Notes: generated from the sequence alone by a model not told the origin. Counted from the first letter of the stretch, positions 26,008 through 48,248 are shown. The stretch is 64,000 nucleotides of DNA from a virus (IMGVR_UViG_3300013288_000004:63360-127359); one strand, 5' to 3'. Numbers and translations are program-made.

Positions 26008-26108
26008 TGGTGGGAGAGGTGGGATTCGAACCCACGATGAACAGATTTTTTAATACTCTCGAAAAAGTGTTAAAAAAGTCTGCTGCCTTACCGCTTGGCC
26101 ACTCTCCC
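26008..26108 (-). tRNA. tRNA-Lys(UUU) with a 26-nt insertion in the anticodon loop
   Basis: Full cloverleaf with encoded CCA; stem GCAGA/TCTGT encloses a 33-nt loop that reduces to CTTTTAA on removing a UUCG-capped hairpin. Confidence 0.75.
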
Positions 26109-32332: not shown

Positions 32333-32408
32333 GGTCCTGTAGCTTAAGCGGATAAAGCACTGGGAGTAGTTCCAGAGATGGAGGTTCGACGTCCTTCTGG
32401 GTCCACCA
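32333..32408 (+). tRNA. Degenerate tRNA, anticodon unassignable
   Basis: D-arm GCTT/AAGC, T-arm and CCA present; mismatched acceptor; 6- or 8-nt anticodon loop. Confidence 0.5.
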
Positions 32409-32416
32409 AATAATAC

Positions 32417-32492
32417 GGGCATGTACCGGCAGAGTCTTCTAAGCTCTAGTACCGTAACGGAGTAGATGGGGGTTCGAATCCCTCCATGCCCG
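32417..32492 (+). tRNA. D-armless tRNA-like RNA with an Arg(UCU) anticodon
   Basis: GGGCATG/CATGCCC; AGAGT-CTTCTAA-GCTCT; long extra arm; GGTTCGAATCC. Confidence 0.55.
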
Positions 32493-32682
32493 CAAGACTA
32501 TATAATAGGAAAGTAAAAATGGAAACCGTAAAGTTAGTTCTATCTGCAATTGCAATTATGATCTTCCTCGTACCATTCTGGTGGACTCTTGTAATCTAAG
32601 GACTTGACATGAACGATGACATAGAATACAATAATACTTTCAGAACAGTAATCTTCTTTGTCATCTTAGGAATGATCATTCT

Positions 32683-32892
32683 ATGAATGAAAGTGCATAC
32701 TATCCTCCTCCAGAGTTCAGGAAAGGTGAAGAAGTGTACCAAAGAACCACTGGCGATGTATATTTTGTTAAGAGTGTAGAAAGGCTTGTAGGTTGCATGA
32801 AGTATGCGTATAATCTTGTCCATTGTGCTGACTTGGATGGTAACACCAAGTCGTTCAGAGAGTGGGAATTGGGTAGTAACCAACCTGCATAA
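32683..32892 (+). CDS. Hypothetical protein in the tRNA array
   Basis: ORF track. Confidence 0.55.
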   Translation: MNESAYYPPPEFRKGEEVYQRTTGDVYFVKSVERLVGCMKYAYNLVHCADLDGNTKSFREWELGSNQPA

Positions 32893-32904
32893 ATAAATGT
32901 TAAT

Positions 32905-32982
32905 GCGCTGGTAGCCCAATTGGCAGGAGGCAACAGGTTTAGATTCTGTACAGTGTGGGTTCAAATCCCACCTAGCGCACCA
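32905..32982 (+). tRNA. tRNA-Leu(UAG), short variable loop
   Basis: Cloverleaf, loop TTTAGAT, CCA. Confidence 0.85.
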
Positions 32983-33269
32983 AAATTTAACAATTTACAG
33001 TGATATTGTGAACAAAGAACAAATAATTACAATATTCACAGTATCATGCTTGACAACGATCTTTGTTTCACCTATACTGTTTGCAACTAACGTCATAGTG
33101 TTTTTCATTGTTCTGGTATGTTATCTATATACATTGAGCGATGATGAATTTGATGATGTTGACAAAGACTAAATAGATTGGTATTATTTGAATTTGTGGT
33201 CGAAAGTTTTAGGATTATCTATTTCAAAGAAAAAACTCCTTTAACGATAAACTTATCACAATAATTTAT

Positions 33270-33347
33270 ATAGCGGTAGTTTAACCGGCAAAAACGCCAT
33301 TTTTTCAAATTGGAAGACTGCGAGTTCGAATCTCGTCCGCTATACCA
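33270..33347 (+). tRNA. tRNA with a UUC (Glu) anticodon and atypical body
   Basis: ATAGCGG/CCGCTAT, loop TTTTCAA, CCA. Confidence 0.6.
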
Positions 33348-33364
33348 GAATTTGTAACGAATAT

Positions 33365-33442
33365 GTGCTGGTAGTCCAACTGGTAGGAGACAACAGACTT
33401 AAAATCTGTACAGTGAGGGTCCGAATCCCTCTCAGCGCACCA
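33365..33442 (+). tRNA. tRNA-Leu(UAA), short variable loop
   Basis: ACAGA-CTTAAAA-TCTGT, CCA. Confidence 0.85.
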
Positions 33443-33495
33443 AAATTTAGTTGTTGACAAACACTAAATAGTACTGTAGAATTTAAGATGTAAGA

Positions 33496-33585
33496 GGGTT
33501 GTTAGACCGTTAAGGATACGGGTCTGCCTGTAAAGCAGAAGTCTGCAATATGACCACGATGGTTCGATACCATCACAGCCCACCA
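33496..33585 (+). tRNA. tRNA-Tyr(GUA)
   Basis: TCTGC-CTGTAAA-GCAGA, long variable arm, CCA. Confidence 0.85.
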
Positions 33586-33589
33586 TAAT

Positions 33590-33663
33590 GGAACTTTAAC
33601 ATAAAGGCTATGTGACTGTGTGAAGTACAGAGAAACTTGGTTCGATTCCAAGAAGTTCCACCA
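33590..33663 (+). tRNA. tRNA-Phe(GAA), atypical anticodon loop
   Basis: GGAACTT/AAGTTCC, loop GTGAAGT, CCA. Confidence 0.6.
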
Positions 33664-33675
33664 AAGTTAAAATTG

Positions 33676-33859
33676 TAAGCCGAACGAAAATAGGTTATCA
33701 CTACGAGTAGCAGGTTGAGGTTGAACCTAAAAGTGTCTGATACTAACATGCAACAAAGTATCATGTGTCCACACAAGAATATGGACCGCAACCAACAGGA
33801 CTTAATTGATTCTGTGTCAATGGCGAAACATTGGCGTCCTATTTTCTTTACCTTGCTTA
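33676..33859 (+). ncRNA. Candidate multi-stem structured RNA
   Basis: Nested closing helices TAAGC/GCTTA and GAAAATAGG/CCTATTTTC plus internal hairpins; no credible ORF. Confidence 0.4.
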
Positions 33860-33867
33860 TGATGCAG

Positions 33868-33896
33868 TTGACAGATGAAAAGTAGTAGAGTATAGT
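33868..33896 (+). promoter_or_regulatory. Sigma70-like promoter for the ribozyme and large RNA
   Basis: TTGACA-17-TATAGT. Confidence 0.7.
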
Positions 33897-33911
33897 ACAC
33901 AACATGCAGTA

Positions 33912-33971
33912 ACGGGAATCACTGATGAGTCTCCCCGTAAAAGAGACGAAACACCGTAAGGTGTCTGGTTT
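33912..33971 (+). ncRNA. Type I hammerhead ribozyme
   Basis: CUGAUGA core; stem II GUCUC/GAGAC; GAAA; stem III CACC-GUAA-GGUG; GUC cleavage after 33965; stem I GAAUCA/UGGUUU; loop II CCCGU can pair with 5' ACGGG. Confidence 0.9.
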
Positions 33972-34810
33972 AGCACTCCGAGGAAGAAATGAATCGGTGA
34001 TCGGAAAGAGTATCGCAAGGTGCTCAAAGGTTGACAGCCTCCCTAGTCAGCCACCAGAAATGGCCCATCTAAACAATGGCACAATACACTACCAGAAATG
34101 GTAGGACGAGGATGAAAACTCGTATAAGTTTTACAACATGGTGAGACAATAGCTGGCGAGGCCAACGGTGTAGCTTCAGCTAAGAATCCGCAAGATTCTA
34201 TCACACGCAAACATGTCTAGAACAGATGTTGAATGCCAAGGTATGAGGTTTGAGTCTTAGCGGACGAGGGCGCATACAAAGGGTATAAGGTTGTGGGACT
34301 AGCCTTCATCGGTTAGACACACAAAGGTATACACTAGTACGAGTAATCTTAGCGGATGAAAGGACGTGTGTGGTATTCCGTATAATAAAGTTATATGGAG
34401 TCACGGTGACACGCATCTTAGGAGGTTAGACTTTATCTATTGGTTAGATGTTTTGCCTTATACAAAACGCAGTGGTTCGATTCCACACTAAAACGCAAAG
34501 TTGTCACCGACTGTAACTGAAAGTAGCGTAATACTCAACACTTCGGTGAATTGAGTCAACGTAAAGCTCGCAAGGCGATATGTTGTTCAAGGAAAGTTGC
34601 ACGTAAGGGGTAGCACCCTGCACTGCTCGCAAAGTAGGCGGTAGACAGAACTTGGAATAGGTTATAGTGACACTAGAATTGCCTCTAGTATAAAAAGGCC
34701 GCTATGGTTGATACTTCCTTGAGGAAGTGGATAAAAGTGGAACCTGTCGATTAAGCACCGATTGGATAATCACTTGAAAGGCAACCAACGATATGCTATA
34801 ATCTCAGGCA
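33966..34810 (+). ncRNA. Large ornate ncRNA, GOLLD-like
   Basis: About 845 nt free of track ORFs inside a phage tRNA array; many GNRA/UUCG-capped hairpins; embedded tRNA-like domain; family assignment from size and context only. Confidence 0.55.
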
Positions 34811-34830
34811 TTCAAGATTTAGAATTTTTC

Positions 34831-34897
34831 ATGTTGTGTAAGATAGATGTTTCCTTTTAAACGCATCCTTCTCTTCTGGTTTACTCTTACACAACAT
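34831..34897 (+). ncRNA. Candidate small RNA
   Basis: 13-bp perfect closing stem ATGTTGTGTAAGA/TCTTACACAACAT; CU-rich interior. Confidence 0.4.
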
Positions 34898-34939
34898 TAA
34901 GAATTTTTAGATTTGTAATATCTCTAAATATAAAAATCA

Positions 34940-35012
34940 CAGGGATTAATGTAGTCTGGTAACATCCGAGACCTGGACTCTCGTATCGTAGGTTCAAATC
35001 CTACATCCCTGA
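34940..35012 (+). tRNA. tRNA-Pro(UGG), C33 variant, no CCA
   Basis: C1-G72/A73; CGAGA-CCTGGAC-TCTCG. Confidence 0.7.
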
Positions 35013-35022
35013 TAAAGATTTT

Positions 35023-35099
35023 GGCTCGTTAGCTTAGTGGGAAAGCGCCGCCCTTACAAGACGGATATTGAGTAGGTTCGATTCCTACACGCGCCACCA
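35023..35099 (+). tRNA. tRNA-Val(UAC)
   Basis: Loop CTTACAA, CCA. Confidence 0.85.
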
Positions 35100-35107
35100 G
35101 AATTATT

Positions 35108-35193
35108 TAAGCATGTTTAGCCTAATAGCATCCAGCTCTATGAAGAAAGAAGGGTTAGTTCAAAATAAGTGGGCATTTTGGACGACATGCTTA
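35108..35193 (+). ncRNA. Candidate small RNA
   Basis: Closing stem TAAGCATGTT/GACATGCTTA and an internal hairpin. Confidence 0.4.
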
Positions 35194-35221
35194 ATTAGAT
35201 AAATAGATTTACAAGATATTT

Positions 35222-35300
35222 GGGGTATGGGACTGCATATGGTGGTCGCTGCACTTGCACTGCGGAATTCAGATCGGAGAGTTACCGATATACTCCACCA
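35222..35300 (+). tRNA. tRNA-Ala(UGC), non-canonical T-loop
   Basis: G3.U70; loop CTTGCAC; T-loop AGAGTTA; CCA. Confidence 0.8.
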
Positions 35301-35309
35301 AAAATTTGA

Positions 35310-35389
35310 CGCGCGGTACATTCAATTGGCAGAAGGCGAGACTCATAATCTCTGCGGATGGTTGGGTTCAAGTCCCCCCTGCGCTACCA
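35310..35389 (+). tRNA. tRNA-Met(CAU), possibly initiator-like
   Basis: Unpaired C1; GAGA-CTCATAA-TCTC; CCA. Confidence 0.75.
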
Positions 35390-35412
35390 AATTAGTTGTA
35401 AAATATTTCAGT

Positions 35413-35489
35413 GGGAGATGTATTGTAATGGTTTCGCATATTACTCTGTGACAGTAAAGGAGAGGTTTCGAATACCTCCATCTCCCCCA
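35413..35489 (+). tRNA. tRNA-His(GUG)
   Basis: Encoded G-1:C73; TTACT-CTGTGAC-AGTAA. Confidence 0.85.
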
Positions 35490-35498
35490 AATTGTAAT

Positions 35499-35585
35499 GC
35501 CGCCTTGCCCGAGAGATTGAAGGGAGCACTTTTGTAAGGTGACGACGAAAGTCCATCGCAGGTTTGAATCCTGTGGGCGGCTCCA
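35499..35585 (+). tRNA. tRNA-Thr(UGU) with a class II-like long variable arm
   Basis: CACT-TTTGTAA-GGTG; GAC-GAAA-GTC arm; CCA. Confidence 0.65.
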
Positions 35586-35587
35586 AT

Positions 35588-35682
35588 TTTCGCAAATAAT
35601 TAAAACTGTGGCAGGTAGCGTACCTTACGCCAAAAGTAAAAAAACGTATCCGGGAGTACAGTTCTCCTAGCAATTTGCGAAA
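35588..35682 (+). ncRNA. Candidate pseudoknotted small RNA
   Basis: TTTCGCAAAT/ATTTGCGAAA closure; loop ACAGTT is complementary to upstream AACTGT. Confidence 0.4.
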
Positions 35683-35696
35683 TTCTTTGATATGAT

Positions 35697-35773
35697 GGCC
35701 GGGTAGCCTAGCGGTCTAGGGCGCAATCCTGATAAGATTGAGATCGGAGGTTCGAATCCTCCCCCAGCCACCA
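35697..35773 (+). tRNA. tRNA-Ile(GAU)
   Basis: CAATC-CTGATAA-GATTG; CCA. Confidence 0.9.
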
Positions 35774-42073: not shown

Positions 42074-42168
42074 TGGTGGTTCTGGAAGGATTCGAACCTT
42101 CACTGTCCGCTAATCTGGCGGCTATGCTCACTTATAAGGTGAGTGTTCTACCGTTAAACTACAGAACC
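42074..42168 (-). tRNA. tRNA-Ile(UAU) with a 25-nt variable region
   Basis: CTCAC-CTTATAA-GTGAG; CCA. Confidence 0.75.
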
Positions 42169-44621: not shown

Positions 44622-45734
44622 TCAATTCTCCGATTCTAGTTGAACATCAGTAATACCGAATTCACGATAGTTCTTCATCATCCAATCCTTCAATCCCATA
44701 TCCTTACCAAGATAAAGATTCATTGCGAGAGGGAATGTGCCATCCTTGAAAGTTTGTTGCGCAAGTATCGCGTAATCTTTCCTCGAAAGCAACTTATTTT
44801 CATCGTAAAACTTCTGCAACTGTGAAGAAATGTGATTGAAGTTAGTACGTACCAAAGTTTCCATTGCAGTGATCTGCTTCATCGCCAGTTCATCATCATG
44901 GAACAGTGAACGCAAGTCATCAGAAGTTTCATACAGACAAGCCTGAAACAGCGCCTTTGGATTGTTTACACTATCTTTACAACGATGAATTTTTGAATAC
45001 CAGTTGTTTTTTATTTTTGCCAATCGACCATCATTAAACAAAACAACGAAACCTTCAACGCCAGTCATATCAAGAATTTCTTCATATGAGCGCATCGTAT
45101 AATCACATGATACCACATATTTTGAACTCAACTGATGTTGAAGAGAAATGTCTGGATATTCTGTATGACCGTTCAACAAGTTGCGTGCGCTTAATACTTT
45201 TAATGAATGTTCCGGATAACGAACCACAATTTGGTTAGAACTTCCGATCCATTCAAAATTTACAGTATATCCATCATCAATATATTCAGAAACAACCATT
45301 AACAAATGATGGTTGCTTAAGAGAAATTGATATGCGTCAACGGCTTGTTGGGAAATGAATGAAGTTTTTGACTTCAAACGAAATCCATGATGCATCGTTG
45401 AATCTTTTACGGTTGAAATCAATGAGCCGTCGAGTTTATCCATATAAAGAACAGCATTCTTTAGATCTAAATCCATTGTGAAATTGTTTTCGTATAGATT
45501 GAAAAACTTTGCAGGCGGAAGACAAACCAAATCCACCGCAGTGTCACCATCCATCAGGAAGGTATGACCACGGCATTCCAGTGCATTCGGGAGGCAGAAT
45601 TCAGTGTAGGATGCCAAACGATAAGTGAACACACGGAAAACCTTACCGTCTACATTCTGATCCACATAGTAGAAAGCTTCGTTCTCACAGAGCTTCATGA
45701 GATCATTGTAAAGAGTCTGCTGGAAGGTGTTCAT
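44622..45734 (-). CDS. rnlA: RNA ligase 1 (T4 Rnl1-like)
   Basis: FTYRLASY, ECRG, PPAKFFNLYEN, KLDGSLI, EGFVV..KIK. Confidence 0.9.
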   Translation of the reverse strand: MNTFQQTLYNDLMKLCENEAFYYVDQNVDGKVFRVFTYRLASYTEFCLPNALECRGHTFLMDGDTAVDLVCLPPAKFFNLYENNFTMDLDLKNAVLYMDKLDGSLISTVKDSTMHHGFRLKSKTSFISQQAVDAYQFLLSNHHLLMVVSEYIDDGYTVNFEWIGSSNQIVVRYPEHSLKVLSARNLLNGHTEYPDISLQHQLSSKYVVSCDYTMRSYEEILDMTGVEGFVVLFNDGRLAKIKNNWYSKIHRCKDSVNNPKALFQACLYETSDDLRSLFHDDELAMKQITAMETLVRTNFNHISSQLQKFYDENKLLSRKDYAILAQQTFKDGTFPLAMNLYLGKDMGLKDWMMKNYREFGITDVQLESEN

Positions 45735-48175: not shown

Positions 48176-48248
48176 CGCCTCGGGTGAGATTTGAACTCAC
48201 GATCACAATTTTAGAGAAAGTCGCTTTAGGCCACTAAGCTACCGAGGC
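48176..48248 (-). tRNA. Amber-suppressor-like tRNA (CUA) with a weak anticodon stem
   Basis: GCCTCGG/CCGAGGC; D and T arms intact; loop CTCTAAA; an alternative UCU register has a non-canonical C33. Confidence 0.55.

Follow-up and report, generated by a model that had tools for sequence, protein, structure and literature searches.

The GOLLD RNA of the phage studied here is probably made by a self-processing transcription unit, in which a hammerhead ribozyme sets the 5' end of the RNA. As far as can be judged from the comparison of sequences, the ribozyme very probably makes this end to the exact nucleotide. A ribozyme-set 5'-OH end had been proposed in a preliminary description of the locus, and the proposal gained support from two sides. 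In five diverged loci the predicted cut adjoins the same homologous nucleotide, with covarying stems and pseudoknots, and the predicted released end pairs in a conserved GOLLD helix.

Genomic context of the locus

The analysed stretch of DNA (64,000 nt, hereafter the window) corresponds to positions 63360–127359 of a virus genome of 306,759 bp with direct terminal repeats, and this size together with the repeats indicates a jumbo phage. The hammerhead–GOLLD unit is flanked by two + strand tRNA gene arrays, at 32333–33663 and 34940–35773, and a consensus scan revealed several near-consensus sigma-70-type promoters around them. The same scan gave two features directly upstream of the ribozyme:

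33814–33837, + strand: terminator-like hairpin followed by a T-rich run (consensus scan; putative function)
33868–33896, + strand: sigma-70-type promoter TTGACA-17-TATAGT (consensus scan; 11 of 12 consensus positions)

The hairpin would act as a separator between the upstream tRNA genes and the hammerhead–GOLLD unit. The promoter had already been named in the preliminary description and was found as described, with 11 of 12 positions agreeing with the consensus; transcription would be expected to start near 33903. Both promoter hexamers are identical in the DNA relative X5, and between the promoter and GOLLD the window holds the ribozyme alone.

Several further tRNA-related sequences were observed. 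Just upstream of tRNA-His, a tRNA-like sequence (35312–35392) has the anticodon loop CUCAUAA, a T arm and a 3' ACCA, and it was called neither by ARAGORN nor by Rfam at the gathering score. A tRNA with a CUA anticodon, labelled Pyl by ARAGORN, is located at 48176–48248 on the – strand; this tRNA and an RnlA-family ligase gene (44622–45734) lie about 10–14 kb from GOLLD. Two tRNA genes on the – strand are over-long, one of 92 nt (42077–42168), in which the Rfam alignment places a 22-nt insertion after the anticodon arm, and one of 98 nt (26011–26108).

The GOLLD RNA

Five loci with a homologous GOLLD RNA were compared: the window and the loci L073, G014 (identical with L058), L065 and L062, which are phage or metagenome contigs. 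The features of the RNA in the window are as follows:

33966–34810, + strand: mature GOLLD RNA, 845 nt, with a predicted 5'-OH end (Rfam for the 3' half; full-length alignment with four homologues of 820–869 nt)
34254–34272, + strand: 5'-domain motif GUCUUAGCGGACGAGGGCG, a marker of the GOLLD subtype (motif scans)
34363–34810, + strand: conserved GOLLD 3' region (RF02032, 198.2 bits, cut-off 150, E 2e-54, model positions 1–416, the full model)
34425–34492, + strand: degenerate tRNA-like element in the GOLLD linker (sequence and alignment; uncalled as a tRNA here)
34806–34923, + strand: extended imperfect hairpin (about 28 pairs) separating GOLLD from tRNA-Pro (MFE -26.3 kcal/mol, z -3.0)

The identity of the RNA had been guessed from its size and context. 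It is now established by the Rfam match for the 3' half, since the RF02032 model spans the conserved 3' region only, and by the alignment with four GOLLD RNAs for the 5' half, in which the 397-nt 5' region aligns with the homologues from the first nucleotide. The score with RF02032, a size of at least about 800 nt that includes a variable linker, and the location in a phage beside tRNA genes are those of a GOLLD RNA. The 845 nt are counted from the predicted cut (first nucleotide 33966) to the 3' motif AUAAUCUCAGGC. The statement that about 845 nt carry no ORF also holds, as no ORF longer than 59 aa was found in 33966–34810.

The tRNA-like element of the linker consists of D-arm-like, anticodon-arm-like and T-arm (GUGG-UUCGAUU-CCAC) hairpins. 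The homologous linker position in G014 reaches 52 bits as a tRNA, and the element is also present at aligned positions in L073 and L065; in the alignment these elements sit at columns about 485–575. Read by eye, the anticodon loop of the element in L073 contains CUA (amber-suppressor type), and the degenerate copy in the window contains UUA, with C where tRNAs have U33.

The hairpin at 34806–34923 is not followed by a T-run, and its loop takes up most of the substitutions and indels of the relative X5 in this region. A double-strand-specific RNase may process the RNA here and so define the 3' end of GOLLD. The 3' end of GOLLD also contains a promoter-like sequence at 34774–34802, TTGAAA-17-TATAAT with an upstream TG, whose -10 hexamer shares bases with the conserved motif UAAUCUCA. 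This sequence may serve the transcription of tRNA-Pro/Val downstream, or it may merely reflect the conservation of the motif.

The hammerhead ribozyme

The sequence between the promoter and GOLLD contains the following features:

33912–33916, + strand: pseudoknot 5' strand ACGGG, pairing with loop II CCCGU at 33934–33938 (sequence)
33916–33971 (33912–33971 including the pseudoknot strand), + strand: type I hammerhead with stems I, II and III and the full catalytic core (sequence and descriptor)

The preliminary description had claimed a complete type I hammerhead, with its core, three stems and a CCCGU/ACGGG pseudoknot, and all of these elements were recovered at the same positions. Stem I is formed by GAAUCA (33916–33921) and UGGUUU (33966–33971), stem II by GUCUC and GAGAC, closed by the loop CCCGUAAAA, and stem III by ACACC-GUAA-GGUGU, so that the three helices, with stem I open, have 6, 5 and 5 pairs. 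The core strands are CUGAUGA (33922–33928) and GAAA (33948–33951). A33951 pairs with U33964, and the H17 position is occupied by C33965 and not by G; the same core is found in all four homologues. The cleavage nucleotide C17 is C33965, and the cut is predicted between C33965 and U33966. The tertiary contact between the stem I region and the stem II region is supplied by the ACGGG/CCCGU pseudoknot.

A strict hammerhead descriptor of our own, covering three topologies, detected one site in the window, and this was the only strong match in the 306.8-kb genome. The background was estimated from 100 simulated 64-kb windows with matching dinucleotide frequencies, which gave 0.08 matches per window at loose thresholds and none with stems 6/5/5.

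The checks with Rfam models, which had been suggested for both RNAs, were positive for GOLLD (198.2 bits against 150) and negative for Hammerhead_1 (RF00163), which aligned to the site end to end with 17.8 bits, below its cut-off of 34. The model puts a penalty on the long loop II and on the G-U pairs of stem I, and the cut-off serves curation rather than defining the structure. Beside GOLLD in the window, a search up to E 10 gave no further Rfam ribozyme family. When the leader alone was folded by minimum free energy, a nested alternative reached -19.2 kcal/mol versus -13.2 kcal/mol for the hammerhead stems without the pseudoknot. The pseudoknot duplex is worth about -6.6 kcal/mol, beyond what such folding programs can add; the minimum-energy folding misses the hammerhead because the pseudoknot cannot be modelled.

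Homologous loci

The five RNAs, with lengths of 820–869 nt, align from the first to the last nucleotide and are 54–80% identical pairwise, two of them being 80% identical. In each of the five loci, a hammerhead with a complete core adjoins the first nucleotide of the conserved GOLLD start UGGUNUAGCA. Three of the loci (G014, L062 and L065) were found via a motif located about 290 nt inside GOLLD, without consulting the hammerhead; the motif scans gave L062 from the viral collection and L065 from metagenome contigs. The 5'-domain motif GUCUUAGCGGACNAGGGCG is common to the window and G014 and absent from the other 52 loci. The locus L073 was found by a junction pattern. A second hammerhead-blind pattern, based on the first 110 nt, returned the same viral loci and no further real member. 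All motif-defined members with enough upstream sequence carry the hammerhead; in L066 and L072 the upstream sequence is too short to judge.

The type I hammerhead of G014 scores 26 bits with Hammerhead_1 and ends exactly at the start of the homologous GOLLD 5' domain. Stems II and III vary on both sides across the five loci, with the pairing kept. Four of the five loci have the loop II/5' pseudoknot, each with its own sequence pair, namely ACGGG/CCCGU (window), AAGGGA/UCCCUU, UAGUAA/UUGCUA and CUGUCU/GGACAG; shuffling gave p values of 0.11, 0.016, 0.093 and 0.013 for the individual loci. These pairs were counted sequence by sequence with a script, because the MAFFT columns are out of register at the pseudoknot. 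The locus L065 has a UAAU tetraloop as loop II and no pseudoknot, and L062 has a shorter stem I (4 bp) and an internal loop in stem III.

Promoter-like sites are present just upstream in G014 and L065, as in the window. In L073 the hammerhead lies within about 20 nt of a tRNA 3' end, with no promoter, and therefore the constant feature is the GOLLD 5' boundary.

Other hammerheads were observed in the homologous loci. A type I hammerhead stands directly before tRNA-His in L058 (1432–1508) and in L065 (1198–1272, – strand), and the tRNA contributes its 5' acceptor strand to stem I of this hammerhead. In L058 the predicted cut after C1502 leaves G1503 as G-1, the tRNA being called at 1504–1578. 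Judging by this arrangement, such a hammerhead would bring about ribozyme-made maturation of a tRNA 5' end without RNase P. The tRNA-His of the window (35414–35489) has no such hammerhead. A second type I hammerhead follows immediately after the GOLLD 3' end in L058 (2559–2614) and L062 (3336–3389), and the one in G014 has its own loop II/5' pseudoknot (GGGC with GCCC). In both loci the RNA downstream of it is another non-coding one, marked by a common motif, GACCUUUCUGYGUA...CAGCGGCGA; in G014 this RNA is about 250 nt long and extends up to tRNA-Gly. This motif is absent from the genome of the window.

GOLLD loci without a hammerhead

A survey of GOLLD loci for upstream hammerheads, as advised in the preliminary description, had a mixed outcome, being positive in the four other loci of the same subtype and negative in about 40 others. 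A pattern for the GOLLD 3' region gave 53 viral loci, 40 of them with at least 1100 nt upstream of the match. No hammerhead was detected at the GOLLD 5' end among about 40 other GOLLD loci with at least 1100 nt upstream. Likewise, the CUGANGA...GAAA arrangement in the right place is absent from 12 Rfam-confirmed GOLLD members, and none of the 14 Rfam-confirmed members of that set has an Rfam ribozyme beside GOLLD at the gathering threshold. The absence of a hammerhead from these roughly 40 loci indicates that a ribozyme-made end is no general requirement of GOLLD and is subtype-specific. The hammerhead–GOLLD coupling is confined to one 5'-domain subtype.

In the first scan with the GOLLD pattern, 6 of 20 loci were below the Rfam GOLLD cut-off. 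Six metagenome loci (L063, L064, L067, L069, L070 and L071), all four genome_contigs loci (L075–L078) and the viral locus L079 were rejected as chance pattern matches in coding or G+C-rich DNA, and the species-representative bacterial genomes contained no true member. A search with Hammerhead_1 over 49 whole GOLLD-bearing virus records gave G014 as the sole match. This search is insensitive, because the hammerhead of the window itself falls below its E-value, and the descriptor was used instead.

A strand shared by stem I and helix P1

The consensus of the five full-length RNAs contains a helix, P1, at the very start of the molecule. Its strands in the window are:

33968–33973, + strand: GOLLD helix P1 5' strand GUUUAG (RNAalifold consensus, script)
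34069–34074, + strand: GOLLD helix P1 3' strand CUAAAC (RNAalifold consensus, script)

In the consensus, nucleotides 3–8 of the mature RNA (GUNUAG) pair with CUANAC at +104 to +109. In the alignment these are the pairs 3-114 to 8-109, and the helix is a MAFFT/RNAalifold prediction from five sequences, not a solved structure. At P1 position 5 (pair 5-112), two sequences have UA, two have AU and one has GC. The nucleotides 33968–33971 belong both to the P1 5' strand and to the 3' strand of the hammerhead stem I, and the two pairings are therefore mutually exclusive. Mature position 5 also pairs with its stem I partner in four of the five loci, so that one position covaries with both partners. 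Calculated as isolated duplexes, P1 is more stable than stem I (-5.2 versus -2.1 kcal/mol).

RNA contigs

Twenty public runs contain part of the stretch, and ten of them are recorded as RNA; the evidence consists of contigs, which cannot show RNA ends or level. The RNA contigs come from soil, sediment and wastewater studies and cover 33988–34710 with 95–99% identity. Those of two studies begin at 33988 and 33995, with no loose ends. A freshwater DNA relative continues through an intact hammerhead and promoter, where its only differences are T33905C and G33943A, the latter in the loop-closing pair of stem II. This gives a weak hint that the leader lies outside the stable RNA. No weight was placed on the stretches uncovered by RNA, namely the upstream tRNAs, the promoter, 34711–34810 and the downstream tRNAs. 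No contig joining the GOLLD 3' end to the 5' end was found among the contigs.

A 5-nt insertion, AGGAC, after 34360 was observed in the RNA contigs of two studies, and C34365G, at the start of the Rfam-matched region, in contigs of three studies. The differences at 34360–34365 reflect strain-level diversity of environmental relatives in soil, sediment and wastewater.

Proposed mechanism and alternative explanations

In the proposed mechanism, the host RNA polymerase would start near 33903, and the first 60-odd nucleotides would fold as a pseudoknot-stabilised type I hammerhead, with UGGUUU, the six nucleotides at the start of GOLLD, serving as one strand of stem I. The hammerhead would be complete six nucleotides past its cleavage site, and thus able to fold and cut. 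The cut after C33965 would occur during ongoing transcription and would remove the triphosphate leader together with the ribozyme, and GOLLD would keep a defined 5'-OH end at U33966. About 100 nt later CUAAAC (34069–34074) would emerge, and the freed nucleotides 33968–33973 would re-pair with it as P1 of the GOLLD 5' domain. With the end captured in this way, the cut would in effect be impossible to reverse, and processing would be linked to the folding of the 845-nt RNA. We infer the catalysis, the order of events and the need for a precise end; such an end may be required for the assembly of the cage, to guard the RNA against 5'-end-dependent decay or to make it independent of upstream sequences.

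5'-OH ends resist the entry of RNase E and RNase J and are a poor entry for 5'-end-dependent RNases. A hammerhead could serve mainly as an insulator or stability device, which detaches GOLLD from upstream RNA and replaces its 5' triphosphate with a 5'-OH, the exact nucleotide being of little matter. The variable upstream context is in line with such a role, as the window, G014 and L065 have their own promoter-like site and L073 has a tRNA directly upstream. Similar hammerheads before tRNA-His (G014, L065) and before another RNA (G014, L062) suggest a general processing module as well. However, the cut is fixed to the nucleotide relative to UGGUNUAGCA and P1 in all five loci, which argues for a precise end. 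We regard an insulating role of this kind as unlikely to be the main one, and it overlaps the best explanation, a ribozyme that sets a precise end, more than it excludes it.

It is far less probable that the 5'-OH is an end-joining intermediate, with Rnl1 (after phosphorylation by a kinase) or the host RtcB circularising GOLLD or joining it to another RNA. The genome does encode an RNA ligase of the T4 RnlA family (44622–45734, – strand; TIGR02308, 266.9 bits) and, elsewhere, a 161-aa P-loop kinase weakly similar to the Pnkp kinase domain. In addition, GOLLD lies between two type I hammerheads in G014 and L062, which would leave a 5'-OH and a 2',3'-cyclic phosphate. The window, however, has no second ribozyme after GOLLD, the genome has neither RtcB nor a PNK3P-type phosphatase, and no RNA contig joins the two GOLLD ends. 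The known role of T4 Rnl1 is tRNA repair, and nothing was found that connects the ligase or kinase genes to GOLLD. Equally improbable is an inactive hammerhead-like sequence, either a chance match or an uncut structural part of the GOLLD 5' domain. The Rfam score below the threshold and a predicted minimum-energy fold of the leader other than the hammerhead would be expected from such a sequence. Against it stand the lack of any match of comparable quality in the 100 simulated windows and the conservation of every core nucleotide in five lineages that differ at 20–46% of positions, with covarying stems. The RNA contigs, which lack the hammerhead, argue weakly in the same direction.

The self-processing unit may be part of a wider ribozyme-based system of RNA maturation in the tRNA islands of some jumbo phages, a reading that we hold tentatively and rate just short of an even chance. 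In such a system, the 5' ends of GOLLD, tRNA-His (G-1) and a small RNA would all be produced by type I hammerheads. The GOLLD stem I strand would double as the first helix of the product, and self-cleavage would act as an irreversible switch on which folding and cage assembly depend.

Comparison with known systems

Engineered 5' hammerhead cassettes, such as RiboJ-type insulators and those used for in vitro transcripts, include the first nucleotides of the product in stem I and give a defined 5'-OH end independent of the promoter. The locus described here has the same layout, i.e., a promoter followed by a cis-acting hammerhead with the product start in stem I. Unlike the designed cassettes, it is natural and conserved and carries its own strand for the refolding of the released end.

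Type I hammerheads are known from bacteria, phages and prophages; in phage genomes they frequently occur as several copies around the genes of one locus, and a role in processing long transcripts has been proposed (Perreault et al. 2011, PMC3088659). Pseudoknots between loop II and a 5' extension have been described for all hammerhead types (PMC3088659). The hammerhead of the window shares the core, the three-stem layout and the loop II/5' extension pseudoknot with these ribozymes. It differs in its neighbour, as those flank varied protein-coding genes and the ribozyme here directly adjoins nucleotide 1 of a giant non-coding RNA, and in the second use of its stem I strand, which also forms a helix of the product RNA.

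GOLLD RNAs are longer than 800 nt, with a less conserved 5' region (residues 1–420 of the 833-nt env-38 RNA), and are found near tRNA islands, sometimes with a tRNA in the linker (Kretsch et al., 10.1101/2024.12.08.627333). The env-38 GOLLD assembles into an RNA-only 14-mer nanocage as seen by cryo-EM, which is known for env-38 only (10.1101/2024.12.08.627333). The RNA of the window resembles GOLLD (RF02032) in its length of about 850 nt, its less conserved 5' region of about 400 nt, its position in a phage tRNA island and its tRNA-like linker element. It has diverged from mainstream GOLLD (198 bits versus 270–325 bits) and, unlike it, has its own 5' domain, with the UGGUNUAGCA start and CUUAGCGG motifs, and is led by a hammerhead.

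Theta ribozymes are minimal HDV-like ribozymes located next to phage tRNA genes (Kienbeck et al. 2024, PMC10879173). As in our locus, they are small self-cleaving ribozymes in a phage non-coding RNA cluster and have been proposed to mature a neighbour without host RNases; they belong, however, to another class, lie 3' of tRNAs and act in trailer removal. Hammerhead, GOLLD and ROOL are absent from the theta-ribozyme paper (PMC10879173), and PMC5737381 names GOLLD and the hammerhead separately, without coupling. In the literature searched, partly by title and abstract and excluding Weinberg et al. 2009 and the Yale thesis cited by Kretsch et al., we found no description of hammerhead–GOLLD coupling. 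Phage hammerheads, GOLLD and theta ribozymes are thus already known separately. What appears to be new, judging from the conserved arrangement, is a naturally occurring hammerhead cassette that serves the 5' end of a single GOLLD subtype and has one strand in common with its product.

GOLLD is among the largest bacterial or phage non-coding RNAs, and the conserved hammerhead at its 5' boundary would be a concrete step in its biogenesis. It provides a predicted native 5' end (U33966, 5'-OH) for structural and functional work on GOLLD, and it would be a natural example of a ribozyme substrate strand that is recycled into the fold of the product. Moreover, it would extend the idea developed for the HDV-like theta ribozymes at tRNA 3' ends, namely that phages may mature their non-coding RNAs by built-in ribozymes besides host RNases.
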